Made by a program: the position numbers and the translations under genes. The notes beneath the pieces were generated by a model. It saw only the letters and a list, made by a program, of their open reading frames with translations. It had not been told where the DNA came from and made no database searches. Source: Emiliania huxleyi CCMP1516 (Eukaryota). Taken from it: DNA of 57,021 nucleotides. Position 1 is the stretch's first letter; each line of letters begins with the position of its first letter. Where the stretch lies: positions 362,553 through 419,573 of the forward strand of contig NW_005201791.1 in assembly GCF_000372725.1 (NCBI RefSeq). The letters run 5' to 3'. Shown here in pieces: positions 21,773 through 48,191 of this stretch.

Positions 21773-22919
21773 TCACGCAAAATTGAACCAGCCCGTCATG
21801 ATGCGCTTCTCCTGCGTCGGCGACGAGACGCCGCGGTGCATGAAGGTCCAGTCGGACGGCCAGACGAGCGTCAGGCCCTTCTTGGGCTGTATCGTCACGT
21901 TTTGGTGGAAGAACTGCGTGCCTGCGGCAGACACGTCTCGGACGCGTCATGGACGTGTGAGTGGACGTGTCGGGCCGGCGGGCACCACTGCGTGCCCCCC
22001 TCGTCGCTCACGTCGTTCAGGTACGTCATGAACACCAGGTGCCGCGACGCACCTGTTCACAGCCGGAGGTGTGAAGAGACGCCGCCCACAGGCCGACGGC
22101 ATGAAGAGACCAGGCGCCGCGACGCACCTGTTCACAGCCGGAGGTGTGAAGAGACACCGCTCACAGGCCGACGGCATGGAGACACCAGGCGCCGCGACGC
22201 ACCCGGCTCCATCCGGCCGTTCCTCTCCGTGTGGTAGATCTTATACCCGCCCCCGGGCGGGTAGTACTGGTAGTTGGTCGTGCACGAGAGGCCCCAGGGC
22301 GAGACGTGGTTGGCCGCGTACGGGTACCTCGCCGTGTACTTCATCGTGCACGCCTGGAGCGCCGTCACGTACCTCCGCCACTCGATCCGAGCGTCGTCTG
22401 GCTGGAAGGAGTACTCCAGCGACTCTTTGGAGGTCGGGTCAATGACCGCGCGCCCGTCTCTGCCCACGACGCCGGGCGCCAGCGCACCCGGGTCCTTCTC
22501 GAAGAGTGCGACGAGGCCGTCGCACACGCTCTCGTCCTCGATCAGGTAGGCGCCCATAAACATCGTGTTGACTCCCTCGCCCGAGGGAAGCGCGTGCTCC
22601 GAGATCCGGAAGCTCTCGCTCACCGTCGCGAGCGGCGGCGGTGCAGACGGCCTGGGCGCGGGCTTGGAGGCGCCGAAACCGCCGCCGCCTGAGTCAGGAG
22701 GGAGGACAGCATCAGCCTCGCTGTGTTTGGTGGGGAGGGAGGCGAGGCGAGCCCAGCGCGGCCGGCGCCTGCCTTCTTTCTACTTTTTGTGGCCTTCTTC
22801 GTCTGCGCCAACCGCGCCTCGGCTCGGCTCGAGCTCCGCGAAGCTGCAAGCGGCCAGAAGGCGGCGGTGTTGCTATGGAGGAGCGCGACCGCGATCAGGC
22901 TAGACGCCAGGGCGATCAT
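21773..22919 (-). CDS. 2OG-Fe(II) oxygenase (prolyl-4-hydroxylase-like) with N-terminal targeting peptide, multi-exon
   Basis: Spliced product contains YQYYPPGGGYKIYHTE, RHLVFMTYLNDV..EGGT, QPKKGLTLVWP.DWTFMHRG and EKRIMTGW, which give the HxE...H facial triad. The N-terminus MIALASSLIAVALLHSNTAAFWP resembles a signal peptide followed by an ASAF-type plastid motif. Confidence 0.88.
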
Positions 22920-23072
22920 GGCGAGGGCGACCTCAACCGCACAGCTCGGACTGGGCCCAGCGTTTTCTTTTTGTGTTGTCCCACTTATCGAATTTGTGCA
23001 GGCGAGAGTACTCGTCCGAATTCCGGCGTTTTTCATAATCTCATCCTACTACGCTACTAGTACCACCCTCTC

Positions 23073-23135
23073 TCTCGAGGTTCTCGAGGTGGATATCCTT
23101 TGGCCGCGTTGGGTAGCGAGGATTGGTGTAACCCG
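23073..23135 (-). repeat. Family D 63-bp dispersed element
   Basis: Matches 30511-30573 with one mismatch; duplicated TCTCGAGG(T) unit at one end. Confidence 0.85.
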
Positions 23136-23720
23136 GGCGGCGGTGAGGGCGGCGGTGAGGGCGGCGGTGAGGGCGGCGGTGAGGGCGGCGGTGAGGCGCC
23201 GCCTGAGGCGCTCGCGCTAGCGCCCGCAGCGCCGCTCTCGCTGGCGTCGCTGTCTGGTTGCGTGAGCGAGCTGGACGCGGTGATGCGGAGCCTGACCCGT
23301 TTCCCCCCTCTCGACCCTCCGGCGCCCTCCCCCGCCGCCCCTCCCCCCGTCCTGCACACCGCCGCGGGCGAGGGCGCTGGTGGCGAGGGCCCCGCCGCCG
23401 TTCCCGCCGCCGCTGCCGCTACCGCCCCCGCCTCGCAGCCCGCGGCAGCCTTCGACCCTCCGATTGGCGGCGCGTCGCCTTGCGGGCCGGCGCCCACAGG
23501 GGCACCACCCGCGGCCACCGAGCCCTTCCCGCTGGACGAGGCTGCGGGCGGGAGCGAGGCCGCCTCCACGCCCGTGCGGCGAAGCGCGCCGCGGCCCCCC
23601 GTCCGCCTCTCCCCCGGTGCCGCCCTCTCTCCCCAGGAGCTGGAGCGGATCGCGCGGATCCTGCACAGTGGCGGGCCCTCACGCGGCGGCGAGAGCGACT
23701 CGTCGTCTGAGGGGGACTAG
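23136..23720 (+). pseudogene. Orphan 3' gene fragment (low-complexity, unknown)
   Basis: Open frame with (GGGE)n, LSGCVSELDAVMRSL and LSPQELERIARIL. It has no ATG start and begins at the family D element. Confidence 0.35.
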
Positions 23721-24370
23721 TGGTCATGAGAGACTTAATGGGGAGGGGGGCTGTAACTTGTATTCGATATAGGGGTCGAGGGGGAGAGCATGCCGCATGA
23801 TGGTGTGTATGTACTACTACTAGCTGCAAATGTAGCAGCTGTTGCTTGGGTGCATGTCGAGTAAAAGCACGAATGTCGAATATCGTTTTTTAACGCGCGC
23901 GCCCCCACCCGCATGGCATCTGGCGTGATGCGGACACGTCCCAGGACCCAGCCGTCCCAGCCAGCTCCCACACACCTGCTCCTGTGGCGTGCCGTGACGC
24001 CGTCCCGCGTCCCGTGCATGCTGTACGCAGCTCTGAGTGTACCGAACTGTATATTCCAAAACCAAGATGTTGGTGGCTGTGATATGGAGTTTTGTCAGAA
24101 GTAAACGTAATATAAAGGACATAAACGATCCCACATGAATCCGAGACGGTGATGGGGGGCGTCTCGGCGGTCTCAGGCCCAGTGAGGTAGTGCGCCAGAC
24201 CAGCCCCGGATCCTGCTGACCAAGCTCCTCTTGTAGCTCGATCGGTCACACCGCCATCGCCGTCGGGGAGAGGGGGGACGACACTGCTTCTGCAGCGTGC
24301 ACCTCAATCCTGTACCGTGTTTGTTATGACCCCCCCCAATGAACACACCAGTGAGGGTGGGCGAGACGAT

Positions 24371-24424
24371 CGAGGGGTCCCGTACCATGCGGAATCGACC
24401 CTATCCAGTGCTCAAGTGCTCAAG
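24371..24424 (+). repeat. Family C 54-bp dispersed element
   Basis: Exact reverse complement of 6277-6330. Confidence 0.85.
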
Positions 24425-24501
24425 GACATAAAAACGCTGAATGAAACGAACATTGCCCTTGCTCATCGATCGGCCAGAGCGCCATACGCCGTGCTCACAA
24501 T

Positions 24502-24885
24502 ATGGCAGCCCTATCTGCCGATGGGGATGGTACTCGACGTTGCACGTTCTTCATGCTGAGCGCCGACTTCGTGCGCCAGTTCCCCGGCAAGAGCCTACCT
24601 TTCTTCCAGGATCTCCGTGACAAGTTCACTGCCGATGAGCCGCTCGTCAAAGTGTCGCTCGACTACGCCGACGTGGTGAAGGGCACCCACATTGAGACGA
24701 CCCTGGCGGTCTCGCACCGATGGATGCGGCCGGATCACCCAGACCCCGATGGCGAGCAGCTCAAGGCGCTCAAGGGCTTCCTCAACTCGCCCGACGGCCA
24801 GAAGATTGAGCGCGTCTGGATAGACTCGGCCTGCATGCCGCAGGATCTCCCCGAGGGCTCGCGCAGCGCGCTAGGGGTCCCCTAA
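24502..24885 (+). pseudogene. HET-like domain fragment (C-terminally truncated)
   Basis: Contains LAVSHRWMRPDHPDPDGEQL...VWIDSACMPQ, the same motif set as the gene at 52282-54666, but stops before the RGWC motif. Confidence 0.7.
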
Positions 24886-25037
24886 GATGTCAATTGCTCT
24901 TCCGCGCCCTCCACGGCGCGCACCGTTCTGGGACTTGCACACCCCTCGCGGCCCGTCTGCTGGATGGAGCCGACATCACTGCCTAAGCCTCGACGGCTCC
25001 ATGGCCGGCATGTTGGGTACTATACGGGCGGCGGGAA

Positions 25038-28000
25038 GTGCGCTTCCTGCCAGGCGCTAGCGGTGGAGCTTGGCTGGCTCGATACTGTGCACTCAGGCCC
25101 GGTGAACCAGACGGGCTGCGTGGTGACGACGCGCTGGATGCCGTGCCGACGGCCGACAAGATGCCCGACGCGACGGGTGGGACCATGTCAAGCCGGGGGC
25201 GGTGTTATTTAGCCGCAAGTCTTAGATCTACCGGGAATGCACGCAGCGCCAGAAGGCCGCGGTGTGGCTCTGCGAAGGCTGCCACACGCACACACAACAC
25301 ACACATGCACGCCTCCCTGTTGCGAGCCGCTCTCGAGGAGACGGCGTGCAGCCTGCAGTGGCAGCCTTTTGCCTCGCTCCGCGGCGCAGAGGGTCGCTAC
25401 ACGGTGAACACAACGTCCGGCTTCATCCCGGACGGCTCCGAGATCGACCTAGTGCCCGAGAACCGCCACCTCTTTCGGGGCACCACGCCGGCGCCACGGT
25501 CTGACGCGGAGGCGCTCGCACGGCGCGCGAGCGTGCTTCCTCGCGGCGAGCTGCTAGCCGGCGTGTGCACGAGCGCTGCCGCGCCCGATCCGGAGCAGGC
25601 CGACGACAGCTTTGCGTTTGGAGTGCACGGAGTAGACGGGCGATCGTCAGGGCCCGGGCCAGACGCTTCGCTCGCCATCGGCAGTGCGGGCGGGGAGAGC
25701 GACACCGGCGGCGGCGGCGGCGAGTGGCACACAGTCCGTGTCGGGCCGATGGAGTCGACCGGAGGGTTCGACTTTTGGTTCCTCGGGTGGGACGACTTTG
25801 CGGTGATCTCGGCATATCCCTCGTGCAATCTCGGGCGATCTCGTGCCATCTCGGGTGATCTCGGGCCATCTCGCCGTCGCGCAGGGGCTCAGTGAGCCGA
25901 TCGCAGCACACGGCGCCGTCTGCGCCACGGGCGCGCTCATCACCCTGGTGCGAGATATGGGGAGATATGGGGAGATATGGGGCGCGCTCATCACCCTGGT
26001 GCTCCCTTGATATACCCTAAGTTTCTCCGAGACCTCGCGAGCGGGCGGTTATTCACAGCTGGGCAGTGTGGGATGGGCAGGGGTGGGCAGTGTGGGTTTC
26101 ACACCCGGGGCAGGTAGGGGATCGGGCAGGCCAGTTGTGCGGCAGTGTGCGGGCAGTGTAGTGCGGCAGGGCAGGGCAGGGCAGGGCAGGGCATACTACT
26201 TAGAGAGGCGGAGACACCGTCTGACCAGCCACACTGCGGTACGGGTGGGGTGCAAGAGAAGGCGGAGGGAACTGTCACACGGGAGCGGCACAGACACAAC
26301 GAGCAGCCTTGAACTCTTCCCCCGTGCGTGGACTGTGGGCTCCAACTGGGCTGCCAGGTGGACGAGGCCGGGCGCCCGATCGGCCAGCCGCCGCTGCACA
26401 TCCACCATGCCTTTCTCAACCTCGAGAGCAGCGGCAGCCGGCACCACACCACCGACACGCGCGCCTGCCTCCTGCTCGGCCGGCGCTGCCCTGGAGGGGC
26501 GGCGATGTTTGCTGGTGCGGCCGACTTCGAGCAGCTGCAGCGCGTCTTCTCGATGCGCCTCACCGTCGAGGAGCCTCTGAACGCGCGCGCCATGGTCAAT
26601 GACGCCCGGCCGCGCGGGTCGGCGCCAATGCGGTGGTACGTCCAGCTGTCGCTACGCACGTCCCCCGGCCGCTGCGAGGCGCGAATATCTCCCCACATCT
26701 CCCGTATCTCCCCCATATCTCCCCATATCTCGCAGCCGCTCGACGTCCTCGTCTCTAGACACGGAACATCTCCCCACATCTCCCGTATCTCCCCCATATC
26801 TCCCCATAGGACGCGCACTCCGTCGTGTCGGTCTTCCACCCCGGGCTGCTCTCCAAGTTCACCACGCTGCAGGTGCCCGCATGCGGACACGCACGTCCCA
26901 CCCGCAGCACACACACTCAGGGGCGAGGGACGGCAGCACAACTCCTCGCCGCGGGGCCAGCACGCGCGCGTGGCAATCTCCCCATATCTCCCCATATCTC
27001 CCCATATCACCGCGCCGCGGGGCCAGCACGCGCGCGTGGCAAGCCGGCCGGCTGGCACCGACACCCTCCCGGACCTCCCCATATCTCCCCATATCTCCCC
27101 ATATCACCGGCGGACTTCGACCGACACCCGCCCGGATCTCCCCATATCTCCCCATATCACCAGAGGGGCTTCGACCGACACACCGCCCGGACCGGTGACA
27201 CTAAATGGCAGCGGAGTTGCGCGTGTCCAGCATGTCAGGTGCGAGATATGGTGAGATATGGGGAGGTGTGGGGAGAGATGGGGAGAGATGGGGAGAGATG
27301 GGGAGAGATGGCGTCTACTACAGGTGCCCGCCACCGAGGACTCCTTCTACTACTACACCTTCCGCCTCCCCTTTTCGGGCTCGCTGCTGCCCCCCGGCAG
27401 GGAGCGCGAGGCGCCGCCGCCCATGCTGCACACGCACCCCGGCCTTCATTGTAGCTCATTCTAGGTCTTCGTCTTCTTCTTCTGAGTTCGTAGGCGCCGT
27501 CGATGCTGCACACGCACCCGGCCTTTCTTCAGCGTGTCTTCCTTCTCAACGGCTCGCCGTCCTAGAAGCGGAGTACCTCCCCATATCTCCACATATCTCC
27601 CCATATCTCCCCACATCTCCCCATATCTCCCCATATCTCGCGCCTAGAAGCGGAGTACGCACTCTTGTCTCCCAACCAGCGCCCGAGAGGACACACAGAC
27701 TCAGCTGCACTCGGCCGTAGCCCGCGATCTTCCCTGCATTCGCCTCCCTCGTATCCACGCGGTGCCCTTGAGTACACCGCGCACAGCCGCCCCGAGGCTG
27801 GCGTATGCGAAGCGAAGGCACCCCGTCGCAGCTCGCCCTCCCCGCGCTGCCCCCGTTTTGCTCGTGGCTCGGAATCGGCGGCCGCGACTGCACGCTGCCG
27901 CCCACCGCCGCCGCGGCCACCTCCAACGCGCGACTCGCTGCGGCGGCGGAGCGGCGCTTCCAGCCGTGCCGCCAGCGGCCGCGCCCGTCTGCCATGCCGC

Positions 28001-28848
28001 GCGTGGGCGAGCTCGCTTGCGACGCGTGGTCCTTTGAGCGCGGGGACGCGGTCACGCTGCTCGCCCTCTTCGGGCCAGGCAACACGAGCGGGTGGAGGGG
28101 CATGGCGGCGTGGGCGCCGCCGGGGTGTGAACGGCGTCTCTTCACAGCGGCAGCCGTGAACAGGTGGAGGGGCATGGCGGCGTGGGCGCCGCCGGGGTGT
28201 GAACGGCGTCTCGTCACAGCGGCAGCCGTGAACAGGTGGAGGGGCATGGCGGCGTGGGCGCCGCCGTCGCTGCTCCACGAGGCCAAGGCGGCGGAGGCGG
28301 ACTTTTTGCGCAAGGGGGGGCGGGACGGGTTTGAGCGGGGGGGGTCCGACTACCTAGAAGCGGAACACGCAGTCTTGTTTTCCAACCAGCGCTCGAGAGG
28401 GCACGCACTCCGCTGTACTCGGCCGCATTCCGCTGTGTGCCCTGTATTCGCCTCCGTTGTATTCACGCGGTGCTCTGAATACGCTGCACACAATACCGTC
28501 CTCCCGCCCTGAGGTTGGCGTCTTCAGCACGTAGGCTCTACTACCCCAGCCACGTCACCGTCTACCTGCGCGCGCGCGCCGCCGACGGCAGATCGCACTA
28601 CCCCTTCCTCTGGGCGGGGCCCGACGGCGGCTGTGGCGAATTGTGTGAACGGCGTCGCTTCACAGCGGCAGCTGTGCGCAGGCGGGCCCCGACGACGGCG
28701 CCTTCGAGACAACCTTTTGGGCGCCGTCCGACGCGCTCGCGCTCGCGCTGCTCCCGTTCGCCCCGACCGGCGCCTTCCGCCTCCTCTCCTCGCGGCGCCT
28801 CTCGCTCACGCCGGCACTCGTCGCCCTCGTCGCCCTCGCCGCCGCTCT

Positions 28849-28879
<31 letters not shown>

Positions 28880-29014
28880 ACTCCGCGCGTGCGGGCGTTC
28901 GCTCGGCGGGGGAGGGGCGGCGAGGGCGAGGTGCGCTTCTCCTTCTACCGCCCCTCCTCCTGGGCGGGAGGGCTGACCCACCCGCACTGGAGGGACCGCA
29001 AGAGCCTGCAGTAA
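25038..29014 (+). CDS. Hypothetical multi-exon protein with His motifs and C-terminal hydrophobic helix
   Basis: Coding-like exons separated by repeat-filled introns: VGPMESTGGFDFWFLGWDDF; PPLHIHHAFL; VNDARPRGSAPMRWYVQL; VPATEDSFYYYTFRLPFSG; MLHTHP; CDAWSFERGDAVTLLALF; ALVALVALAAALAA. Start uncertain. Confidence 0.6.
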
Positions 29015-29346
29015 GGCCCGAGGGGCGAGGGCGGTGGGGGCCCACCGAGGTGCGAGGTCACAACACTGAGAAGTGTAAGTGGCGCGCGTTTGCGGTGGCA
29101 GAGCGCTCCCTGTAGCTGTACGTAATAGCTAACTGTTAGAACTGTGCGTGATGCGGCGTGAGTGTTACTGGCGGCGCGACCCTTGGGGGGGCGCTTGCGG
29201 CCCTGGAAGGGCGTTTCCGGGCGTTTTCAGGTGGGTTTCCCCCCAGCGCCCAGGCATGACTTTCGTCTAAGGTTCCTATTTGTTTGTTTGGGGGATGGAA
29301 AGATGTGATGTGAAGGAGAGTGAAAACAGAAAAGGTTGTGAACATC

Positions 29347-29377
29347 CACGCACGCACGCACGCACGCACACACGCAC

Positions 29378-29411
<34 letters not shown>
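29347..29411. repeat. (CACG)n/(CA)n microsatellite
   Basis: Directly visible. Confidence 0.95.
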
Positions 29412-29414
<3 letters not shown>

Positions 29415-29566
29415 ACTCGTTGGATCGATAGCTAGGGTTGGCGCCCTTTGATGTTCGCGGCCGAAAATTGCCGTGCCGGCGTGCCGTGCTCCACCTCGCC
29501 CTCCCGAATTCCCGATCGCCCTAGTTGGGGTCCTCGCCGCCCGAGATCGCCCGTCCTCGCTCGAGA

Positions 29567-31287: not shown

Positions 31288-33075
31288 ATGGCCTACTGTT
31301 CATCAAACCAGTTCAACTCGGCATTTGTGCTCGTGCTCTTTGGCGCCGTCCTTCTGCTCTCCAGTCTCGACGTGCAGCCCGCACGCGTCGCCGACGTGCG
31401 GTGGACGCGCAGCGATGACGGGCGCCGGCCGGCCGCTGTGAGCGTTCACGCAGGAGATCGTCGACGCGCAGGGGGGACTTCGGAGGTGCCGCGAGCGGAG
31501 GACGCGCGGCTGAGGGCCAGCCTTCCAGCTAACCGTCCCGCCGTCGGCACATGCGAGTCGCTCGAGTGCGCGGCGCGGCTTGGGGTGAGCGAGCCGTCGT
31601 GGGTGGACCTCACCTTCCAGCCACGGATCGACTGGAGGGGCGGCGGCGTGCGAGGTGACTGTGTCGCCGGTGAGCTCGAGTACATCATGCCCAAGTACTG
31701 CTCTCCCCGCGCCAAGAGGGCGGGCGGGTGGCCTTCTGAGGCGCGGCTGCGCGAGGCGGACGTGCACGCGAGCGGGCTGCCGCAGGCGGGAGAGATGGGG
31801 AGAGATGGAGAGACATGGGGAGAGATGGGGAGAGAGATGGGGAGGGGTGATGAGAGCTGGACGTGCACGCGAGACGGGCCGCGGAGACGAGACGAGATGG
31901 CCCGAGAGATGACCCGAGATGCCCCGAGATGCCCCGAGATGCCCCGAGATGACCCGAGATGACAGGGAGGGCAGCCGGGAGCAACAGCCGCGCAGCAAAC
32001 GAGCACCATAAATTGTGCACGCCTTCCTGCTGCGCCTCTCTCTCTGAGGAAAACTCCTGGCCTGCCGCAGGCGGGCCTGGGCGAGCTGGCTGCGCTGCTG
32101 GGCGGCAAGAGCGCTGCTCGTGGTGCGAGACTCGGTGATGGAGCAGGTTTGACCAGAAGAAGACTGTGACAACCCTAGGCAAGACGCTGCTCGTGATGGG
32201 CGACTCGGTGATGGAGCAGTTTTACAACACGCTGCAGTGCCTCGCGGCGAAAGAGTCGCTCAAGGTGCGAGATAGGGGGAGATATGGGGAGATATGGGGA
32301 GATACGGGGAGATAGGGGGAGAGATGCAGTGCCTCGCGGCGAAAGAGTCGCTCAAGGTGCGAGATAGGGGGAGATACGGGGAGATACGCCCCCCCTCCCT
32401 GGAAGCGATGATTGAGTGCGCCTGCTCCAAGCGACCGCCACTGTGCCACACCGGAGTCCGCTTCCCCCCCCCCTCGCTCAAGGTGCGAGATATGGGGAGA
32501 TATGGGGAGATATGGGGAGGTGTGCCACACCGGAGGCCGTCCGCTCCCCCTCCTCACTCATGGTGCCCCACTCGACCCAATTAGTTATTAATTAACTGTT
32601 AATTAAATGTTAATTAACATCGAGGCGCCCCACTCGGCCTCGCACGAGTCCTTCCTCCCCATATCTCCCCATATCTCCCCATATCTCCCCATATCTCCCC
32701 TCAAGGTGCCCCACTCGGCCTCGCACGAGTCCTTCCTGCTCGCGACCAAGCCCCTCTGGAACAGAGGCAAGCGGAAGAAGCCGCCCAAGCTGCCCGTCGA
32801 GGTGGCCAGCGGGATGCGGATGACGTATGCTGCTGTGAACAGCGTCTCCTCACACCTCTAGCTGTGAACAGGTGGCCAGCGGGATGCGGATGACGTATGC
32901 TGCTGTGAACAGCGTCTCCTCACACCTCTAGCTGTGAACAGGTGGCCAGCGGGATGCGGATGATGTATGCGCGCGTGACGACGATGCAGCCGGACGAGGT
33001 CGAGGCGGCAATTGGCTCGGCCGACGTTGTGCTCCTCAACTGGGGACTTCACTACCAGGTGGACACACACACACA

Positions 33076-36253: not shown

Positions 36254-37430
36254 AGCCAGCGGGCTGCCACACATCCTGAGTGGGCGTACACATCACTCAG
36301 GCCACGTCCCCCCTGTCGCCCCCCCCAGCACTCCAAGGTGCCAAGAGACAAACAACAGCACAACAACACAGACAGGCGACAGGCGCGAACGTGTGAGACT
36401 AGAGCAGGCTTGCTCCGCCTCTAGCAATCTCGTCGCCGGCCGCAAGGCACGGACGAGACCGTGTGTGGGGTCTTGTGAGGTGTCTATGGACGCCCTCCTC
36501 ACAGGCTATTGGCCAGCCGCTAGCCCTAACTCGCACTCATGGGTGACGACAGTTCATTGGATGAGTGGTTGCGAGCAGAGGCGCGTGTGCTGAATCTAGA
36601 TCGCACGCCGTGGCATATGACTTGGGTAGGCGTGCGACCGCAGCGCGCCCGCCGAAGGCTCGACCGGGCGCGCGTGTCAGCCAGAAGTTTGCCAGTAGAG
36701 CGATCCTGGTCTTTCCGAAGACGAGCCCCGCGCCACGGGTGCCAGCCGTGCCTCCGCGGGAGCCGCCTCTCGAGCCGCGTCCCGCCGGCACTGTCCCTGA
36801 GTGCGTCCCGCCTTGGTTGGCGACACGCACTCGACGAGGGCAGTCCAGCCGACGGGAACGTGTCGCGCGCCGGCGACGAATGCGGCGGGGTGGGTGTGGG
36901 TACCGAGCGCCGCTTCGGCGAAGCGAGGTTGGCAGGCGCCCCTCACGAGTCCGTTCAGACATGCCACACGCCCCTCGCAAGCGAGGTTAGTAGGCGCCCC
37001 TGGCGAGACCCGCAAGAGATGCCACACCACCCTCGTACCTATACTCCACCAATGAGAAGGTGAAGAGATCTTATCGGCCAGGCGGGCAGGGCAGGCGGGC
37101 GGGCGGGCGGGCGGGGTCGGTGGAGACTATTCCTAGCGGGGTATCCCCTCCCGACCCACCTTCCGAACGGCCTACACCCTATCCAGGCTCCGAACATAGT
37201 TGGTTTACGGGTCAGTCGGGGGACCCACTAGGGGGCGGCCCCTCACACGACTGCCCAGTGGGCCCAGGGATGGCGGTGGCGAGTCACTCCGGAGCAGAAT
37301 AGAGGTGCGCACGAGGCAGGTGGCATAGCACTGCCCACCCCCTTCCACCCCCCCTCGCCCTTCGCAGCCTCGGCCGTGCTTTGGTGGGGTCCGCTTCCTC
37401 CTATCCAGCTTGCAGCCCGAACCCTGGCAC

Positions 37431-39392
37431 ATGACCAGGTGCGAGGCGGCGGTGGGCGGCGCGGGCGGCGCCTCCTCGGGCGAAGCGGCCTCTTCCAGCT
37501 CGCTGGGCAGCCTTCCCAAAGAGGCGGCGGCAGCAGCTATTAAAGGCGACGACGCGGCGCTGCTGGCGTGGCTCCACAGCGGCGGGCGGGTCAACGCGAC
37601 TTGTGGGGCAGGCAATGTGAGCGGCATCACCGCGCTGATGACCGCCGCCCAGTTTGGCCACGAGCGAATGGTCGAGCTGCTGCTGCAGCACGGGGCGGAG
37701 ATCAACCTGCAGAGCAGCGACGGCGACACCGCGCTGATGGACGCCGCCAACAACGGCCTCGAGCGAGTGGTCGAGCTGCTGCTGCAGCACGGGGCGGATG
37801 TCAACCTGCAGGACAGCAAAGGCTACACCGCGCTGACGGTCGCCGCCAGCAACGGTCACCCCGCCGTCGTGCTCCGCCTGCTGCGGGCGGGCGCGGATAC
37901 AAAGCTGCGCTCTGAAAGCGGCAGGACGGCGCTGCAGTGGGCCAAGCAGAAGGGCCTTTCCGCGTGCGTCGAGGCTTTCCGGCAGCACGTCGCGGAGGTG
38001 ACTGCGAGCCGGCACGAGGCGGCGGCGGGCGGCGCGGGCGGCGCTTCCTCGGGCGAGGCGGCGGCGGGTTCGACGGCCGCGGCTTCTTCGGCCGTGACAG
38101 CAGCTATCCAAGGCGACGAGACGGCGCTGCTGGCGTGGCTCGACAGCGGCGGGCAGGTCAACGCGACTTGCGGGATGGGCGATGTGAGCGGCATCACAGC
38201 GCTCATTGGCGCCGCCCGGTTTGGCCACGAGCGGGTGGTCGAGCTGCTGCTGCAGCGCGGCGCGGAGATCAACATGCAGAACAGCGTCGGCGGCTTCGCG
38301 CTGATGGGCGCCTCAAGCCAAGGCCACGAGCGAGTGGTCGATTTGCTGATTCGGCGCGGCGCTGACGTCAACCTGAAGAACAGCGACGGCGACACCGCGC
38401 TGATGGACGCCGCCACCAACGGCCACGAGCGGGTGGTCGAGTTGCTGCTTCAGCGCAGCGTGGAGATCAACCTGCAGAACAGCAACGGCGGCACCGCGCT
38501 GATGTACGCCGCCTACAACGGCCACGAGCGAGTGGTCGAGCTGCTGCTGCAGCGCGGCGCGGAGATCAACAAGCAGGACAGCCGAGGCGGCACCGCGCTG
38601 ATGGGCGCCGCCAACAACGGCCACGAGCGAGTGGTCGAGCTGCTGCTGCAGCACGGGGCGGAGATTAACATGCAGAACAGCAAAGGCTACACCGCGCTGA
38701 TGGTCGCCGCCAGCCACGGTCACCCCACCGTCGTGCTCCGCCTGCTGCGGGCGGGCGCAGACACGGCGCTGCGCTCCGAGAGTGGCAGGACGGCGCTTCA
38801 GCTGGCCAAGGAAAAGGGCCACGCCGAGTGCGTGCGCGTCATCGAGGAGCATGCGGCGGCGGAGGCGGAGGTGGAGGCAGCGCGGCATGCCGAGGCGCTG
38901 CTGGCGGAGGAGGAGGCGGAGAAGGAGGCGGGGGGGCGCGACAAGGAGAGCAAAAAGGGCAAGAAGAAGAAGAAGAAGGGGAAGGGCGGAGGTGGAGGCG
39001 CTGGGCCGTCGCGGGAGCCCGAGGATGAGGCAGCGCTGGCGGCGGGAGAGGAGGCGGAGTTGGCGGCGGCGCTCGAGGAGAGCGCGAGGCTGGAGGAGGA
39101 GAGGCAGGCGCCCGACGAGCAAGCGTCGTCCTCTTTGGCTGCAGAGAGGCCACCTTCGGTGGAGGAGGAGGAGCCGCCGGCCGACTTCGTCTGCCCAATC
39201 ACGACCGAGGTGATGAGCGACCCGGTGATGGCAGCGGATGGGCAGTCGTACGAGCGGATGGCGATCGAGCGCTGGCTCGCGACCAAGTCGACCAGCCCGC
39301 TGACGGGCGAGGAGCTCGAGTTCACTCGGCTCTTCCCAAACCACACACTCCGCCGGGTGATCCGACAGTGGCAGGAAACCGCTCGCAGCTGA
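37431..39392 (+). CDS. Double ankyrin-cassette / U-box protein (putative E3 ubiquitin ligase)
   Basis: Intronless. Two capped ankyrin arrays, then 'AEALLAEEEAE..KGKKKKKK', then U-box PADFVCPITTEVMSDPVMAADGQSYERMAIERWL...SPLTG...PNHTLR. Confidence 0.92.
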   Translation: MTRCEAAVGGAGGASSGEAASSSSLGSLPKEAAAAAIKGDDAALLAWLHSGGRVNATCGAGNVSGITALMTAAQFGHERMVELLLQHGAEINLQSSDGDTALMDAANNGLERVVELLLQHGADVNLQDSKGYTALTVAASNGHPAVVLRLLRAGADTKLRSESGRTALQWAKQKGLSACVEAFRQHVAEVTASRHEAAAGGAGGASSGEAAAGSTAAASSAVTAAIQGDETALLAWLDSGGQVNATCGMGDVSGITALIGAARFGHERVVELLLQRGAEINMQNSVGGFALMGASSQGHERVVDLLIRRGADVNLKNSDGDTALMDAATNGHERVVELLLQRSVEINLQNSNGGTALMYAAYNGHERVVELLLQRGAEINKQDSRGGTALMGAANNGHERVVELLLQHGAEINMQNSKGYTALMVAASHGHPTVVLRLLRAGADTALRSESGRTALQLAKEKGHAECVRVIEEHAAAEAEVEAARHAEALLAEEEAEKEAGGRDKESKKGKKKKKKGKGGGGGAGPSREPEDEAALAAGEEAELAAALEESARLEEERQAPDEQASSSLAAERPPSVEEEEPPADFVCPITTEVMSDPVMAADGQSYERMAIERWLATKSTSPLTGEELEFTRLFPNHTLRRVIRQWQETARS

Positions 39393-39723
39393 CACGCTTG
39401 TGGCGGGGTCAGTGCCTGTCACTGCATTGGTTGGTGCACCTGACCTGACAGAGATCAGAGTGTCACTGACAGTCCTTCTACATCGAGCATCCAGCAGCTT
39501 TCTCAGGGTGCATGGCCATGGGGCCCTCTCTGCCTCTCAAAAATAAATGAGAGAGGGGAGAGATATCTCGAGAGATCCCTGGGCTGATTTTTTGTGAGAA
39601 GCGCGCACGCACACACAAGCGCCGAGACACGCGTATTGGGAGTATAGAGCGGCCGCTCAGACCTCAGTAATAAATAAATAAATACAACGGACATCCCAAG
39701 CTAGGGCTGGGTCGAGGACAAAT

Positions 39724-41048
39724 GGGGTTTGTGGAGCGTCCAGGGATGTCCAGAAGGTCCAGAAGGTGTCCAGAAGATGTCCAGAAGGTGTCCAGAAGAT
39801 GTCCAGAAGGTGTCCAGAAGGTTGGAAAAGAATGTGGGAACGTCTAGAGGGTCCTCTGCAGGTGTGCAGAAGGCCTCAGGTGTTCTACCGAAGGTCTCAC
39901 TCAGTCAGGTTAAGCCGTAGGTCACACGTGTCTCAAAGAGTCGCCTCCACGAGTGAGCAACCCAGTCAGTCATGGGCTTTGAAAAGTAGACATTGTGGTT
40001 TGCTGGTGAAGGCCTGCGGGCCTTCTGGACATTCTGGACATTTGCTAAAGCTTCTAAAGCACCTTCTGGACATTCTGGACATTTGCTAAAGCTTGCTCAC
40101 TCGCGCCGAAGGGCGTGTTGGGAAGATTCTGTGATTACCGCTGCGTGGTCGCTCGGTGGCCGTCGCGATCGGTCGTCCCGTGCCGGCCTCGGCCTCGCGG
40201 CCCTCGCACACCTTGGGTTCGTCTAAATTCGAATCGCCGTTGTGGAGTACGGGCGCGGCAAAGACGGCGCCTCGACAGCGCCTCGACGGCGGCCGCAAAA
40301 GCCGTCTCATGCACGTCGCCGCGCGGCCTCGAGGCGCCGCGAGCGTGCACTGCGGTCAGCACTACCCGCTCCGGCCCGAGACGCCCGACGCGCGCGCGCG
40401 CGCGCTCTCTCCCACCTCTCCACCCAGACGCTCCACGGTCGCTGTGTCGCAGCTGTGTCGCGGCATAACCACCGAGCCGCAGCGCGGCGCTCGGCCCGCG
40501 CCGCCGTCTCACGAGCTCGTCTCTCGCCCGCCGCGCAGGCGAAAACCAACTCGATGCCTCAAGGCTTGACTCGAACGACTCTCGTCACTGTACCCGCCCT
40601 CGTGCCACGCTGCAGCCGCCGCTCTCGTCTCTCCTCTGTCGCTTCGCCGCGGTCGCGGCCGCACGGAGGTGCCACGGGCGGTGCGAGTGATACTCCGCTT
40701 CGCGCCGTCCGGCTCCATATACTGCGACTGTCGCGCCGCGGATGAGTGCGGTTTGTCCTGCCCCGCGCGCCTCGCGCCGCCGCGGCACTTGTTTATAGTT
40801 TTTTTTGCTTGTTTGTTGTTGTATACCGCCTTGAGATGTAACAATCACAGATTCAGTAAGAGTCTGATGGGTATGACCACACTTGGAGAGGTGTACAGAA
40901 TGTCCAGAATGTCCAGAAGGTGTCCAGAAGATGTCCAGAAGGTGTCCAGAAGATGTCCAGAAGGTGTCCAGAAGGTGTCCAGAAGGCTTCTGGTCAAAAT
41001 GCAGCTATTTAACCTTTCGCCATTTGAGAAGGCCAGCTCCCCACCCCT
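39724..41048. mobile_element. Non-autonomous element with subterminal (GTCCAGAAG[G/A]T)n arrays
   Basis: 11-bp arrays at 39748-39821 and 40897-40986, inverted copies (TTCTGGACA) at 40021-40081, and imperfect GGGG..GGAGC / GCTCC..CCCC ends. Confidence 0.6.
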
Positions 41049-41061
41049 GGCTTAATTAGTA

Positions 41062-42624
41062 GAGAGAGAGAGAGAATTCTTGATACGAAACCACGACGAC
41101 ACACACCAGTCGACTCGCATCGGTTGCCTCCATGAACGGCGGAGCTATTCTCGCGCCCACACCACACCTGGCTCCAACGTGGACACGCCCATAGCTGGGG
41201 ACACTACTAGGTCACGCATGGCATCACAGAAGTTTTATCTCTGGGCCCCGAAAGGCATCTCTAGCAGTGTCGTTACACATGCCCCCTCCCCTCCTGGGCG
41301 CATGCGCCTCACGTCTCACCAGAGCATAAGCCCTTGGCGTGTGGCGAGACGAGTTTTTCGCCATCGCAGCGAGCAGCAAGCCGCCCGCCGCAAACAGCCG
41401 GAGGCCTCGCCGCGGCACTGGCTGCGCCGCGGTCCCGCACCCGTCGACGCAGCTCCCCCCGCGGAAGACCGCGCGTAGCAACGTCTTGACGATCGAGATG
41501 AGCGTGCCTGAAGCTCGCCCACCTACTGCCCCTGAGAGTTGGTTATTGAGTGGGATCAGCTCCCCCCCTTGGGATCGAAGCCGCCACAACCTCACACCCA
41601 ACATCCCAGGCGGGATCAGAAGGGGACTCCACACCGGACACCGCCCGGGCACAGCCCCCCTACCCGTCGGATCGCACAGAGGGCCCCCTCGGAGCAGCCC
41701 ACACACAATCACGCATCGGCAGATTGAGTGCCTGAGTCAGGCAGACAGCACAGACAAGAGGAGAGAGAGGAGAGAGAGAGAGAGAGAGAGGAGAGAGGAG
41801 AGGGTGAGGGTGTGAACACACGTGAGGAGTGGGGGAGGGTGTCTGTGGTGGGCTGTAGTCCTACTACGTGGTTAGAACCACGCGCCCCTCAGGAGCTTAA
41901 GGTAGAGCTGAGCGTCCAAGACGCCTCGGTGCCTCCCACCGGCGTGAAGACCATCCGGATCTACCGGACGCGCCCTCCGGGCGGGTCCGTCCCCGCGATG
42001 GCCCACGGTCCTCCGTCGCCTGGTTGAACCCCCTGCCTCCCGGTTGACCCCCCGGTCCCCGTACTCCACCATGAAATAAACTCAAAGTCCACCACAGCCA
42101 CCACCCTCCACCTCCACCGTCGAGCCGCGATCGCTGCCGCCCGCGACGCCGCCCGCCGCGTCAGATAGCCGCGACGCGCGCATCGAGTCGCGTCGGAGAG
42201 CCGCGCCGCACCAGCAGCAGCATCTGCACCACCACCAGCAGCAGCAGCACCACCACCACCACCCGAGAGAGAAGCGCACCTGCCCGACGCCGCCCGCCGC
42301 GTCAGACGCTCGCGACGCGCGCGTCGAGCCCAGTCGCACAGCCGCGCCGCGCCAGCAGCAGCATCGGCACCAGCAGCAGCAGCACCACCACCACCAGCAC
42401 CAACAGAGACAGGCAGTGCAGGCGCAGAGGCGCTCGCAGAGCGGCGCTCAGCGCCGCGCACGCCACGCTGCGGACCGTCGGGCGAGCGCACCGTACGTCG
42501 GCGGCGAGCCGCGTCGCCAGCCGTCTCGCGAGAGAGCGGCGCCGCCGCGTGCGCGCAGCAGCCGCCGCGGCAGAGGCGAGCCGCGGCGACGTCCGCACTA
42601 ACGGATAACGGCCATTGGCGGTTT

Positions 42625-42670
<46 letters not shown>
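41062..42670. mobile_element. Family E insertion with (GA)n/(TC)n ends and 12-bp target-site duplication
   Basis: GCTTAATTAGTA occurs at 41050-41061 and 42671-42682. Internal segments are shared with 44547-44832. Confidence 0.8.
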
Positions 42671-42673
<3 letters not shown>

Positions 42674-43043
42674 TAATTAGTAATAGATCTAGATCTTTCA
42701 ATTGTGCCGCTCTCAAATCTAGTCTGGTTCAGAATGGCGTCCGCGGTCCCGAGATATTACGTAACAAAGGTTTCCCTGGACGCTCCACAAACCCTATTGA
42801 CAGACACGTCCCCACCTTTGCAGGATTTTGCAAACGCGAGGGGGGAGGGCGCATCGCCGCGCGGAGAGGGCTGGGCACAGGGCACAGGGGATCTCTCTCG
42901 ACCTCAGTGCCGTGCGTCAGCCTGTATCTGAGAAATTCTTTTGGATGAACGCACGGGCCCACATTTGGAGCACCGACATTGGGAGCACCGACACAGTTTG
43001 TTGGCGAGATCCCGACGAGCCCACACTAGGACCCTCGTCGCAT

Positions 43044-43834
43044 ATGGGTGCCTCGCATCCCACTCAAGACATATATCCACGCCGGTCCCTGCTCCTGCCT
43101 CCGCCTCAGCCGAACTCATATAACACCGCCGCGGCTCGTCTGTCCTTCAGGCGGCTGCAGCTCCAAATCCGACGAGACTAGCATCCGGACTGTCAGCGTT
43201 TACAAATCGACGCAGCAAGACGAACTGGGTGTGCGGCTCAGCAACAGCCGCAGCCGCAGCCGCAAAGGCCCTGTCGCGCTCAAACCTGACAAGTCCTTCG
43301 GAGAGCGCGCTGTCGGGTACGGCCAGCTTCTCGCTGTCAACGGCGAGCCCGTGCACAGCACCGAGCACGCAGCCTCGCTCATCAAGGAGGCGCCGCCTCC
43401 ACGCTCAGAATCCCACCCTCCACCCTTGCTGAAAGCGCCGCCCGCCCCTCTCCCTCATTTGACGCGATTCGTGCCGTCTGTAGGCGGAGGGCGAGGTGAC
43501 CCTGATGGTCGTGTCAGAAGGCCGAAACCGCCGCCGCAGCAGCTCGTCGGTGCGGGAGGACGAGGAGTATATGCGTCAGCTGCGCGCGGAGAGGCTCCGG
43601 CGCGGCCTCCCCGAGAACCCGTCGCCACAGCCCGACACGCGGGCGCAGGATGGCGCGGAAGACTGCGGTGTGGCCTGCGGTGAGCGACGCCTCTACACCG
43701 CCCGCATCGCCACGGACTCTCGCCTCCAGCCTCTGACACGTCCTTCCCATTCGAAGCTCACGCGCTGCCCCAACGCCCGCGTGTGCCCCTCAGGACTGTG
43801 CCTGTGCCTCGTAACGGGAGAAATGGTGGTATGA
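43044..43834 (+). CDS. Small putatively N-myristoylated PDZ-like protein, multi-exon
   Basis: ATG G|gt(43048)...cag(43150)|GC gives MGGCSSKS. PDZ-like segment: 'VSVYK...LGVRL...LLAVNGEPVHSTEHAASLIKEAEGEVTLMV'. Confidence 0.6.
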
Positions 43835-44546
43835 AGGAGAGCTGATGAGGCGACCAAAGAGACGACGACGATCCCGATCCGCCAAAGAGAGTAAAACAGC
43901 CGATCAAAGAGGGGGTTTGTTTGTGTTTCTCGCTGTCGGCCTGTGGTTAATCACTCTTACGATTCTCACGGGCGCGCGCCCCCCTCCCTGTCCCTCTCTG
44001 CACTCTGGCCGGGCCCGGGGGCGCCCGGGCGGGGCGAAGAGGCTTCAAAAGTGTGTTTCTCGGGTCCGTTGGCCTCTTTTGTAGGGAAGAATTTTGATAC
44101 CCGTCAAGACGCCTGCTGGGGGCAGGTTCGTAACGAAGCCGTCTGCTCCCCCAGCAGGTACACACTAGACAGATACCAGGAGGAGAAAGGGGACGGTGGT
44201 GGGTTCGCGACGAGGAGAGAAGGAGGTACTGGCGACGCGCACAGACTGACGTCAGCTCTGCTTCTGAAGTGCACCTCTGACGTCTGAGGCACCTCAGAGG
44301 AAACGACGCACTTGTCGTAACTTTTCGTCAGATTCGATCTCGTCGCCAGACTTCGATTTCTTTCTCTTTGTCAGGCCATGTGCCGCTCGCTCGCCCGCCC
44401 AAGTGGCTTGGACGCGCGGTCGAGGGCACCCCACCTTTCTTGGGACGCGCTGGCGCTCACCAGCGATCGTCCCCCCACCCATCCACCCTTTTTTCTTTGA
44501 GGCTGTCGCTCCGAGAAAGCTCGTCTCGCAGTGAGTGAGTGAGTAT

Positions 44547-44798
44547 ATTCTTGATACGAAACCACGACGACACGGACACCGCCCGGGCACAGCCCCCCTA
44601 CCCATCGGATCGCACAGAGGGCCCCCTCGGAGCAGCCCACACACAATCACGCATCGGCAGATTGAGTGCCTGAGTCAGGCAGACAGCACAGACAGGAGAG
44701 AGAGGAGAGAGAGAGAGAGAGAGAGGAGAGGGGAGAGGGTGAGGGTGTGAACACACGTGAGGAGTGGGGGAGGGTGTCTGTGGTGGGTTGTAGTCATA

Positions 44799-44832
<34 letters not shown>
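44547..44832. mobile_element. Family E internally deleted copy
   Basis: ATTCTTGATACGAAACCACGACGACAC (as at 41076-) is joined directly to GGACACCGCCCGGG...TGTAGTC (as at about 41636-41860). Ends in (TC)n. Confidence 0.85.
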
Positions 44833-44838
<6 letters not shown>

Positions 44839-44944
44839 TGAGAGAGGCTTGTATTTTAAGAATTCTTTGTTGAATTCTTTGTGCACGAGACGCCGCACAC
44901 ACGCTGCTTCTCACTACAATCCACGTACGCGCGAAAGCGCAACA

Positions 44945-45498
44945 ATGCCCTGCGCGCCGTCCTGCACCCCGACGGTCCTGGCCAACCGCGCCGGAGCTTT
45001 CTCGTGCGCCGCGCGTCTTGGCTGGCTCCAGTCCACGCGCGGCGGCGGTCTCACCGAGCACGCCGCCTGCACCACGGTTGCGGGCGAGTTTCCGATCGAG
45101 TGTGGCGACTGCGCGCCTTTGAGCCTCGTGGCGCAGCCGCATGCTGCCAGCAGAGTAGTGCCGCCCGCCGCGCCACCGCCGTCCCCTCCCTGGCACCTGC
45201 TCAAACTCCCACGCCCGAGCCCGCCGCCGCCGCCGCTGCCGCCCGGGATGCCTCCGCCGACATGGCCGCCGTCACCACTCCCTCCGTCGCCTCCAGTCGC
45301 GCCACCGCTCCCTCCGCCGCCGTCCCCCTCGCCGTCACCCCTCTCCCCGCCGCCCACCGCGAAGCCGCCGCACGCGCCGCCGCCGAACGCACCGCCGCCG
45401 CCACCCCCGTCTTCCCCGCCGTCGACGCCGCCGCAACCTCCGGCGGCGGCGCCGTCTGAGCCGCCTCCGCCGCAACCGCCGGCGGCGGCGCCGCCTGA

Positions 45499-45533
<35 letters not shown>

Positions 45534-47177
45534 TGCCGCCACCTCCGCCGTCGCCGCCGCTGCCGCCGCCGCCCCCGCCGCCCCATACGCCGCCCCCCCC
45601 GCCGCCTCATACGCCACCACCGCCGCCGCCGCCTCCAACGCCGCCGCCACCGACCCGCCCTCCGCCTGGCCTCTGGCATGACCCGATCGAGGGCAGCGAC
45701 GGATGCTGCAGGACGGATGCCGTGGGCGTCAGCACGCCTCATGCGAGCACCTTTACCCGCGCGTGGGCCGCCGGCCTGGAAGAGTGCAAAGGCAGGTGCC
45801 TCACACACCTGCAAACATGCACCGCCATCGGGTACAACAGAGTGAGCCAGGCTTGCGAGGTGCACACCTCCCCCGCAGTCGCCCACACGGCGGCGGGAAC
45901 GCCGTGCACGTGTCTGCTCTTCAAGACGGCGCCTCCGCCGCCGGGTGCCCCGCCGCCGCCACCAACTTCGCCGCCATCGACGCCTCCGCCGCCGCTGCAA
46001 CCACCAACTTCGCCGCCGGCCGTGAGGCTCATCCTTGACACCGACATGGGGTGTGGCGCTTGCCGCGACGTCGACGACGTCGTTGCCTTGTGCGCCCTCC
46101 ATGCGCTGGCGGACAACGGCGAGGTGGAGCTGCTCGCAGTTGTGCAGGACAGCGCGCCGCCCGCAGGAGCAGGCGTCATCTCTGTGGTGAACCACTTCTA
46201 CGGCCGCGACCACATACCGATTGGCGCGTACAAGGGGTCTGGGCTGACGCTGGCGGGAGAGCCTCCGCTCACGTTTGTCGACAGTGTCCTGAAAGCCTTC
46301 CCTTCGCCGATCCGGAACGCCTCACAGGTGCCGGACGCCGTCGACGTGTACCGGCGCGTGCTCGCCGCCTCGCCGCCGCGTTCAGTCACAATCGCGTCTG
46401 TCGGTCTGCTGACGAATCTGGAGCTCTTGCTTCGCTCGGGCCCCGACGCGCATAGCCCCTTGGACGGCCCCTCTCCCTCATCAAGCAGCGGCCTAACACG
46501 TGGAGAAGTGCTCGTTACTGTCTCTGAGAGCCTCCCCTGTAGGCTACGCTTTGGTGGCCGAAAAGGTGGCTCTCCTCTCAATCATGGCGGGAGACTACGC
46601 GACGAGCGGGCCTCGCTTCGCCGAGTGCAATGCGTGCGGCTGTTTCAACGGCGCGGACGCCGTCTCCAGGGCGACCGCCGCAGCCGCGTCCTCTTTCGTC
46701 GCAGCAAACGTGCCGCCGTCCGTCCGTACCATCTACCTCGGGTGGCGCGTCGGGGACGTGGTGCGGACTGGCGCGGTGATGGAGCTGTGCGCAGCGCCGG
46801 CCAACCCGTGCCGGCACGCCCTCCTAGCGAGCAAAGTAGCTCCACGCGCCCACGCGACCAGCGACACAGGTGACGCGGCCTTACGGTGTGGACTCTAGGC
46901 ACGCCCTGATGGACTTTCGCGACCGGGCGGGCTGGGGGTGGGGCCCGGGAGGCCGCTCCAGCTACGACCCGCTAGCCGCCCTCCTAGCGGTGCGCGGAGT
47001 CAGCCGCGAGGGCGTGGGCTTGAGCGAGTGCACGCAGTGCGACGGCGTCAACTCGATCGACCCAAAGAGCGGCAAGAATGAGTGGTTGCCGGGGCGGCGA
47101 AGCAACCAGAGCTATGTCGAGCTCACGGACCGGATGAGAGCGCAAGAAGCGATTGATGCGCTCCTCTGCCAGCCACG

Positions 47178-47224
<47 letters not shown>

Positions 47225-48191
47225 TGCCGCCGCTGCCGCCGCCGCCGCCCCATACGCCACCGCCGCCGCAGAGCGGCGGCGAGAGCGTGCTCGTGCGTCC
47301 GGGTCACCTCTCCGAGGTGGCGGCTGCTCCTCCAGTGCCGCCCGTGCCGCCTGCGCACGTCGCCAAGGGCGACACGCCGTCGGAGAGTGCGACGCCCTCG
47401 TGGGAGGGCCTCCTCGCCCGCGCATCCCGCATGGCGCAGTCGGTTGGCCAGTCCCTCGCGGAGGCCCTTGAGCTCGACGCGGCAAGCGGCGTGCAGCGGC
47501 GGCTGCTAGGGAGCGTCGAGCTCTCAGCCCTGCTCGGAGCCGTCGCCGCCTGCTGCTGCGTCGCCTGCCGGCGGCGGCGGCGAGAGAGGCGGTTCGATCA
47601 GCTCGCCGACGAGCCTGACCAGCCGGACCACCAGGAGCTGCACGGCGAGGGGAGGTCCGAGGCCTTTGGCACCGAGCGCAGGAAGAAGCAGGTGGCGCCG
47701 CAGCGGGGAGACCGCGTCACAAGCTGCTGTGAACAGCGTCTCTTCACACCTCTAGCTGTGAACAGGTGCCGCAGCGGGGAGACCGCGTCAAGCACGGCAG
47801 GCGCGGCGAGGGCACGGTGGCCGAGCTGCTGCCCGACGGCCGCTCGCGCATCGTCTTCGACGAGGAGGAGGAGCACGGCGAGCACCGCTACATCGGGCAG
47901 CTGGAGGGGGCAGCGCCGCTCGACTCGCCGCAGCGGCGGCAGGCGACGCGGTCGCACGTCGAAGAGGCGGCACGGCGAGCGAAGCTCGAGGCGAGCGCCG
48001 CGGCCGGCAGGCGCGCGCTGAAGGAGCTGCAAAAGGAGCAGGCACGGCAAAAGGAAGCGCAGCAGGAGGCGCAGACCCGCCAGCTGCTGCGGGCGCAGGA
48101 GCTCGGCCAGACGCAGCCCAGCCTTGCCCGGAGCCCCAGCCCGGTCCGGCTCTTGTCTCGCCTTGAATCGCGTGCGCGTTCATTCTCTTGA
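44945..48191 (+). CDS. Multi-domain membrane protein: Cys-rich module, Pro-rich stalks, PAN/apple-like module, inosine/uridine nucleoside hydrolase domain, TM, cytosolic tail
   Basis: Hydrolase motifs LILDTDMG...DVDDVVAL, SVTIASVGLLTNL and RSSYDP; apple-like ECKGRC...CTAIGY...CEVH; TM ALLGAVAACCCVAC followed by a basic stop-transfer stretch. Several introns. Confidence 0.8.

Follow-up and report, generated by a model that had tools for sequence, protein, structure and literature searches.

The origin of new spliceosomal introns is a long-standing question, and it is posed anew by a 57,021-nt stretch of the Emiliania huxleyi CCMP1516 genome (contig NW_005201791.1, positions 362,553 to 419,573; here, the window), in which several genes carry introns or predicted introns of about 70 nt, single or doubled, made of a copy of the start of the following exon and of a 39-nt sequence, the cassette, that closes on the acceptor AG. 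What makes such an intron, and is the cassette its agent? The original prediction, based on the letters alone, had placed four such units and a degenerate fifth in the window, all of which are found there, and had attributed them to the insertion of a fixed cassette with a long target duplication. The units are real, are spliced where this was checked, are not ancient at the one site checked and are more widespread than had been seen. Very probably, they share a geometry in which a staggered break receives a copy of the last 40 nt or so of a nearby intron, with long duplication of the target and with splicing acting as the filter.

Architecture of the units

A near-copy of the exon start is present in all the units of the original prediction, with two reservations: at 22053-22202, where each of the two units consists of a diverged copy followed by the cassette, the match is near-exact over the first 20 nt or so only, and at 47692-47765 it is interrupted by two 2-nt insertions. 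The exon 5' of 22053 shows 100% identity over 74% of length to a protein clustered with CCMP1516 2OG-Fe(II) oxygenase models; the units at 28092 and 28614 belong to one transcript and have a rare cassette variant in common. Two further units, 12118-12188 and 12551-12673 on the minus strand, had been overlooked. A 28-nt cassette pattern finds 9 matches in the window and none in 100 shuffles.

A scan of 43 of 64 metagenome parts with this exact 28-letter pattern returned at least 143 matches in at least 122 loci (L-numbers), most of them from a few metagenomes; viral contig and genome contig sets gave no match. Enough flank was available for 134 of the 143 matches and, after subtraction of 15 that precede a tandem unit and of 16 duplicates, at least 103 distinct sites were retained, two of which are alleles of window loci; all family counts given here are among the matches listed. 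When the 60 nt 5' of the cassette were compared with the downstream sequence, using the 99th percentile of mismatched pairs as the threshold, a copy of the downstream exon start was found at 80 of the 103 sites. The alignment begins at the first exon base in 62 of these 80, and a G directly precedes the copy in 68, a figure that, as a target preference, is confounded with the splice-site consensus. The insertion with long target duplication postulated at G|GT is supported, and widened to G|GY. A GT start holds for four of the window units, but the dinucleotide that follows the cassette at the 103 sites is GT in 46, GC in 44, GA in six and another in seven. Five of the six GA-starting copies follow an AG, and the six loci concerned (L014, L037, L047, L064, L095 and L101) would need GA donors, which suggests that GA-AG introns may be tolerated in E. 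huxleyi.

The homology, junction homology counted in, has a median length of 30 nt (range 15-48), and the unit measures 64-79 nt in 79 of the 80 cases. Copy length and switch point compensate each other (rho 0.83; standard deviation of the total 3.5 versus 6.8 and 5.9), shorter copies coming with longer filler. Copies are perfect at 20 of the 80 sites; elsewhere, mismatches (154 of 2373 positions in all) are spread evenly over codon positions, and the cassette has drifted at 1/120 in substitution-free units versus 7/64 in units diverged by at least 12%, as expected if copies start exact and then age. The first 25-39 nt at the 5' side are locus-specific at 80 of the 103 sites, and similarity does not, therefore, run along the whole intron except in whole-donor copies such as L090 and the head of L006/L035/L041. 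These last three loci draw repeatedly on a single 71-nt head, which recurs at several positions as well as within tandem arrays, including on opposite strands 350 bp apart, and which makes up a whole-unit subfamily that similarity pipelines would detect.

Codon-model strand calls, which are weak, assign 46 of the 80 sites to the sense orientation and eight to the antisense, with 26 unclear. In sense units the acceptor AG is supplied by the inserted part, as had been proposed. Three of the eight antisense calls were accepted on reading (L021, L107, L121) and, together with L044, form a set of four in which AG|GY inside the duplication gives both splice sites; the other five calls were rejected or set aside.

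Splicing

Three sequences bear on splicing in the window: an RNA contig (X10), a second study's contig of unrecorded type (X4) and a genomic-type run (X1). In both X10 and X4 the segment 28092-28235 is removed as a 144-nt GT..AG intron (28090 joined to 28235) and 28614-28681 as a 68-nt intron (28612 joined to 28681), both being present in X1; X4 also lacks an unrelated intron of 191 nt, as mRNA would. Use of the junctions in RNA is confirmed at these two sites, where the unit, as anticipated, is spliced without change to the protein. At 22053-22202 an RNA contig departs from the window at 22191 after 12 shared bases, and the insert is absent from reference proteins, which run continuous across the site; indirectly, this points to splicing there as well. 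Removal of the units at 32802 and 47692 leaves stop-free frames; of 46 phased sense units, 44 would, if kept in the transcript, introduce a frameshift or a stop.

Two sequences of the 22-kb gene, P0003 and P0027, lack the cassette intron and keep the next one (21922-21995), a pattern to be expected of partly spliced RNA no less than of an empty allele, and therefore not counted as the latter. That neighbouring intron, on the minus strand, is a 74-nt GC..AG intron with a 9-nt exon-start copy. Chance and assembly artefact are rejected as the source of the units on the strength of the mismatched-pair controls, the shuffles and the transcript contigs.

Age of the positions and allelic variation

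If the intron positions were old, ectopic gene conversion could have carried the cassette from one to another, the downstream exons overwriting the 5' ends. At 22053, one site, the ancient shared position that would support such remodelling is not what is found: genomic read-through proteins of relatives, about 70% identical (P0040, P0051), cross the site without an intron and enter one only nine codons past it, and Chrysochromulina-cluster proteins on contigs of up to 78 kb are uninterrupted there. All nine fetched E. huxleyi-type genomic read-through proteins of the 22-kb gene carry the insert, which thus predates those alleles. Remodelling also sits badly with the coding frame on both sides of most units and with the joint ageing of copy and cassette, and antisense units cannot arise in this way. 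It would suit those units that come immediately after another unit or an older intron (L017, L058, L064, L068, L086, L107, L117), the cassette without a copy at L032, and L003, in which the exon after the cassette holds intron-copy and cassette-start bases (changing V to M) that are absent in L039 and L049, the outcome of recombination between repeats or of an assembly chimera. Remodelling accounts for only a minority of the units and is, as a general explanation, very improbable.

The number of units differs between alleles: L084 (at 22053) and L072 (at 32802) are single where the window is double, and L003 and L039 also differ in copy number. The tandem duplication of a unit after its insertion, which the original prediction had included, is supported.

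Donors of the inserted sequence

Of 5253 site pairs, five have 9-24 nt in common 5' of the cassette; four exon-position controls gave 1, 0, 0 and 0 such pairs. What is shared belongs, in four of the five, to the exon copy of one site, where it is native, and to the filler of the other, where it is foreign; the fifth is a prolongation of the cassette's own 29-nt period. Cassettes are identical in the pairs L008/L094, L059/L013 and L036/L043 and differ at one base in L100/L090. Within the window, the 5' part of 12551-12673 matches the exon of the 22-kb gene and not that of its own gene; it holds the head of the 22-kb units, including read-through over their internal AG|GT junction, and its 3' haplotype is that of the 22-kb intron allele P0023. 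Neighbours on the same contig share the 3' haplotype in 71% versus 27% of cases (28 non-independent pairs, p=0.0004), and in a retest confined to one sample and one pair per locus in 6/9 versus 25% (p=0.014). Donors thus appear to be usually local. Recipients differ in length from their donors by 0-4 nt, a difference equal to the population spread, so that inheritance of donor length by in-register replacement is inseparable from length selection.

Local donors, unrelated fillers, copying across unit junctions and both orientations favour the templating of the tail by host DNA, a version of tail copying for which we judge the case evenly balanced. The template might instead be RNA: the 3' end of an excised, debranched intron would prime reverse transcription at a nick, by the enzyme of a long interspersed nuclear element (LINE) or through RNA-templated repair, and 5' truncation at a microhomology, with a second nick, would yield the long duplication. 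Such a route would suit any intron tail, donors that are often in the same gene, and sites that are exonic and mostly in sense. Variable duplication with 5' truncation is, moreover, a hallmark of elements without long terminal repeats (non-LTR), for which long LINE duplications are known (PMC9977147). The four antisense copies, too, have an exact AG end: they stop within 1 nt of the cassette AG, although microhomology (6, 3, 1 and 0 nt) of 3-6 nt accounts for two of the four, and the search was limited to copies with an intact end. Yet the units carry no poly(A) or simple-repeat 3' tail in about four-fifths of the locus listing, the copies run past the likely branch point and, at 12551, past the internal AG|GT junction, one donor lies 9.5 kb away in another gene, and no reverse transcriptase is found among 16 window open reading frames (ORFs). 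The exact antisense ends and a shortage of non-exonic copies keep an RNA template viable; we regard it as rather unlikely.

The same architecture with other fillers

Arrays of 10-11-bp repeats are said to have been noted as common in E. huxleyi introns when the genome was published in 2013. Among 81 such arrays from the loci and the window (a few being alleles of one locus, and the loci having been chosen beside cassettes), 40 have long, non-periodic direct repeats on either side that exceed the 99th percentile of controls, where about one was expected. The spacing of the direct repeats peaks at 66-75 nt, and a GY..AG register falls at the repeat start in 23 of the 40, at its end in four and in the middle in two, six having none and five being unclear. 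Some array tails are identical between loci. The cassette, on this evidence, is not required for the architecture. In a mirror form (window 32269-32322; L060, L076, L094, L028) the duplication spans the upstream exon end and the splice site lies at the repeat end.

These observations bear on the possibility that the cassette is a minimal non-autonomous element mobilized by a transposase and acting as an introner, the array introns being other families or the product of a separate process. The closest likeness is to the HUH-type Replitron-1, which with Replitron-N1 of Chlamydomonas (PMC10288648) has direct terminal repeats, a hairpin, one exact end and copy-and-paste propagation, and whose fuzzy end taken from the parental flank and variable target duplication both recur in the units described here. 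The cassette has a 10-nt repeat at both ends (the same repeats forming an 8/10 inverted repeat, as read at 47727-47765), a hairpin (z -2.4), an exact end, filler from the donor flank and variable duplications. This four-point match to the Replitron-1 signature keeps the transposase viable. The direct repeats may, however, also be read as 1.3 turns of a 29-nt repeat, whose period continues upstream in 4 of the 143 matches, and the lowest-energy stem lies at the exact end instead of the fuzzy one, where an alternative 6-bp stem is possible. Hairpin conservation among variant cassettes is given no weight, since those variants had been selected for similarity. A single Replitron terminus, at 52 nt, exceeds the whole 39-nt cassette, and Replitrons measure 910-3600 nt and are under-represented in coding sequence and introns, whereas the cassette makes introns in exons. 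No transposase family, HUH genes included, and no reverse transcriptase family was detected among the 16 window ORFs scanned, and Emiliania is not mentioned in the available text and seven supplements of PMC10288648, which itself suspects a non-Rep source for the duplications and fuzzy ends since Chlamydomonas Helitrons show both. With the same architecture recurring around unrelated fillers, a transposase acting on the cassette seems distinctly unlikely.

The fixed cassette of about 40 nt, as the agent that had originally been proposed, is not supported in that form by these results: the inserted piece extends variably into the 5' part of the donor, donors are usually local, four insertions are antisense, and half of the tested array introns have the same shape with unrelated fillers.

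A proposed mechanism of intron gain by tail copying

The reading that we favour, tail copying into a staggered break, would proceed as follows. An exon would be opened by nicks on opposite strands 15-40 nt apart, and the broken end just before the future exon start would prime at the AG of an existing intron and copy that intron backwards over about 40 nt. The new strand would then rejoin the target at a microhomology, sometimes after having entered the donor's own 5' part, and the segment between the nicks would be duplicated by fill-in; of this, homology at the junctions and filler derived from donors are observed. The first GT, GC or GA of the duplicate and the copied AG would be spliced together, as they are at two sites, leaving the protein unchanged. 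Survivors would be limited to products of about 64-79 nt, so that a tail of 39 nt would persist only where the duplication is long. Mispairing of the two direct repeats would double the unit, doubling being what the alleles display, and would also delete it precisely. The exon-start copy would decay afterwards, as the correlation between copy divergence and cassette drift indicates. Each new intron can be the next donor, and hence no dedicated element is needed. That a self-perpetuating, element-free cycle of this kind, possibly templated by excised intron RNA, makes a large share of E. huxleyi introns is a tentative proposition, and one that we would sooner doubt than assert.

Several observations weigh against tail copying by the host. 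No significant copy is found at 23 of the 103 sites; on reading, most of these seem to hold a copy that has decayed, the entire head of a donor or several different units stacked together, while at L032, at least, a cassette is present with no visible copy. The exact antisense ends, at an AG that splicing there does not require, suggest that the template had a defined end, something not predicted from host DNA repair. Copies outside exons, being neutral, should be more numerous than those that survive in exons, yet flanks are coding-like at 60 of 79 sites, versus 89 of 150 random segments of the loci and 62 of 150 random segments of the window. The 5' boundary of the cassette is fairly sharp, conservation being at least 90% from position 2 (save for two dimorphic sites) and near background by -3. 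No empty allele was seen in E. huxleyi DNA, where X1, X2 and X5 hold the inserts or break at them, and BLAST among the metagenome loci gave allele pairs and copy-number differences and no empty site. The single-unit alleles could be assembly collapses, although at L084 the mix of variants argues otherwise. Finally, a second intron family, described below, behaves as a true transposon would, with a sharp start and a constant 10-nt duplication.

Relation to known systems

Introners, which co-opt the 5' splice site and carry the 3' one (PMC9860276; PMC12130899), likewise place repeated intron tails at unrelated loci and leave the mRNA unchanged, the donor site coming from the target duplication and the acceptor being carried. 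They differ from the present units in their duplication of 3-9 bp (PMC9860276), against 15-40 nt or about 40% of the intron here, where, in addition, inserts vary in length and come from local donors, the 5' part is peculiar to each locus and the shape is common to many unrelated tails. The claim that the mechanism is undescribed needs qualifying: the splice-site logic is standard for introners, and a possibly matching family has been tabulated. The supplement of PMC9860276 lists E. huxleyi CCMP1516 introner families of 70 nt, with 19 and 158 copies and the target-site duplication given as '?', and that of PMC12130899 lists fam24, with five copies of 70 nt, '10bp terminal direct repeats', class unknown and a 2-nt target-site duplication. 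By description, the level at which the two were compared, fam24 may be the cassette family; given these 70-nt families, the latter may be partly catalogued.

Gain by double-strand-break (DSB) repair also leaves direct repeats flanking the intron, read as fill-in of a staggered break, and junction direct repeats above the 99th percentile of mismatched-pair-type controls are found here at 80 of 103 sites and in 40 of 81 arrays. The present repeats are much longer, and the filler, for which other introns serve as template, spreads in families. Only five DSB-repair gains of known origin are given in PMC3443670, in which repair-based gains are a handful and mass gains are tied almost entirely to transposons with short duplications. 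Tandem genomic duplication, in which a duplicated AG|GY gives both splice sites, is matched by the four antisense cases, but the intron here is not wholly exon-derived, about 39 nt being foreign filler. Target-primed insertion of non-LTR elements (Dualen, R9; PMC9977147) shares the long variable duplication, exact 3' end and truncated 5' end; it differs in that the present units have no poly(A) tail and no demonstrated LINE partner, and that their donors are local introns. Miniature inverted-repeat transposable elements (MITEs) and cut-and-paste transposons make a fixed short duplication, against 15-48 nt here with junction homology counted; as for terminal inverted repeats, the cassette ends match at 8 of 10 bases. 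In the literature searched, which lacked most subscription papers, the 2013 genome paper among them, no long exon-start duplication in E. huxleyi introns is described; nor was any description met of donor chains or of independence from the filler, published introner sequences being only partly covered.

Other features of the window and a second intron family

The intron units of the window are collected in table 1. The tail of 12118-12188 has its last 20 nt or so in common with the cassette, and the 3' tail of 12943-13015 is also found in an intron of the metagenome locus L073. A further unit of exon-start copy and AT-rich sequence, at 32563-32624, directly precedes 32625-32705.

Table 1. Intron units in the 57,021-nt window.
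Feature	Coordinates	Strand	Remarks
Double unit, 2x75-nt intron	22053..22202	-	2OG-Fe(II) oxygenase gene; 0 stops spliced, 2 unspliced
Double unit, 2x72-nt intron	28092..28235	+	Perfect 31-nt exon-start copy, variant cassette; splicing seen in transcripts
Single 68-nt GC..AG unit	28614..28681	+	Same variant cassette subfamily as 28092; splicing seen in transcripts
Double unit, 2x70 nt, predicted intron	32802..32941	+	29-nt copy and cassette; 0 stops spliced, 4 unspliced
Single 74-nt unit, predicted intron	47692..47765	+	Cassette 47727-47765; removal leaves stop-free frame
48-nt partial and whole 75-nt unit	12551..12673	-	Copy of 22-kb units, other gene 9.5 kb off; putatively spliced
71-nt GC..AG unit	12118..12188	-	About 22-nt exon-start copy and variant tail; putatively spliced
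About 30-nt exon-start copy and 10-bp repeat array	32625..32705	+	Putatively spliced
Tandem units, exon-start copy and 10-bp repeat array	56646..56792	+	Putatively spliced
73-nt unit, 19-nt copy and 11-bp repeat array	12943..13015	-	Putatively spliced
77-nt unit, about 21-nt copy and non-repetitive filler	12734..12810	-	Putatively spliced

A second intron family, of about 105-190 nt, is present at 28344-28534 and 27552-27816 (both plus strand) and at L013, L051, L058, L059 and L068. It has a sharp start motif (CTAGAAGCGG), internal GTATTC-type repeats, degenerate inverted ends and, in seven readable copies, a constant exon-start duplication of about 10 nt, and resembles a conventional MITE-type introner; the copy at 28344-28534 is spliced out in transcripts. 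At L058 and L068 a cassette unit follows a second-family intron at the same exon start. At 27562-27659 (plus strand) a 16-nt duplication with a 10-bp array lies inside the head of a second-family element, a splice-neutral site; 27577-27658 (minus strand), considered as an exon duplication, was rejected as it sits within the intronic element.

Rfam gave no match over 11500-48500 of the window, and Pfam none on eight exon pieces around the units, some of which were in the wrong frame. The long ORFs of the window (3187-4986 on the minus strand, 6898-8910, 14893-19554, 37329-39389, 52285-53493 on the minus strand, 44666-46870 and 48800-51970) encode an NHL-BTB protein, four ankyrin-repeat proteins, a PAN/nucleoside-hydrolase frame and an AP2 protein. 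Three of the four ankyrin-repeat proteins add RING, kinase-RING or U-box domains, a cluster of ankyrin E3-ligase-like genes.

Implications

The window holds 6-7 sites in 57 kb, and 74 kb of flanking sequence adds 21. Extrapolated to the 168-Mb assembly (PMC9860276), this density suggests thousands of sites, an estimate that clustering inflates and that far exceeds the 653 introner copies which the same source tabulates for the E. huxleyi genome. Tail copying would be a high-volume source of introns that leaves proteins unchanged. Target, donor and age can be read from the introns themselves, apparently for many types of filler, in an alga that is kept in culture and of which many strains are sequenced; this opens donor-recipient genealogies, rates of gain and of precise loss, and the choice between DNA and RNA templates to direct test. 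Families of this kind would probably be undercounted by pipelines that cluster introns on overall similarity, and the long direct repeats, which can write intron bases into exons, as perhaps at L003, matter for E. huxleyi assembly and gene prediction. If the cycle of tail copying is true, it would account for the repeat-filled introns of about 70 nt, with GC donors, of E. huxleyi, and would give this alga thousands of young introns, polymorphic between strains and revertible by recombination between their two repeats.

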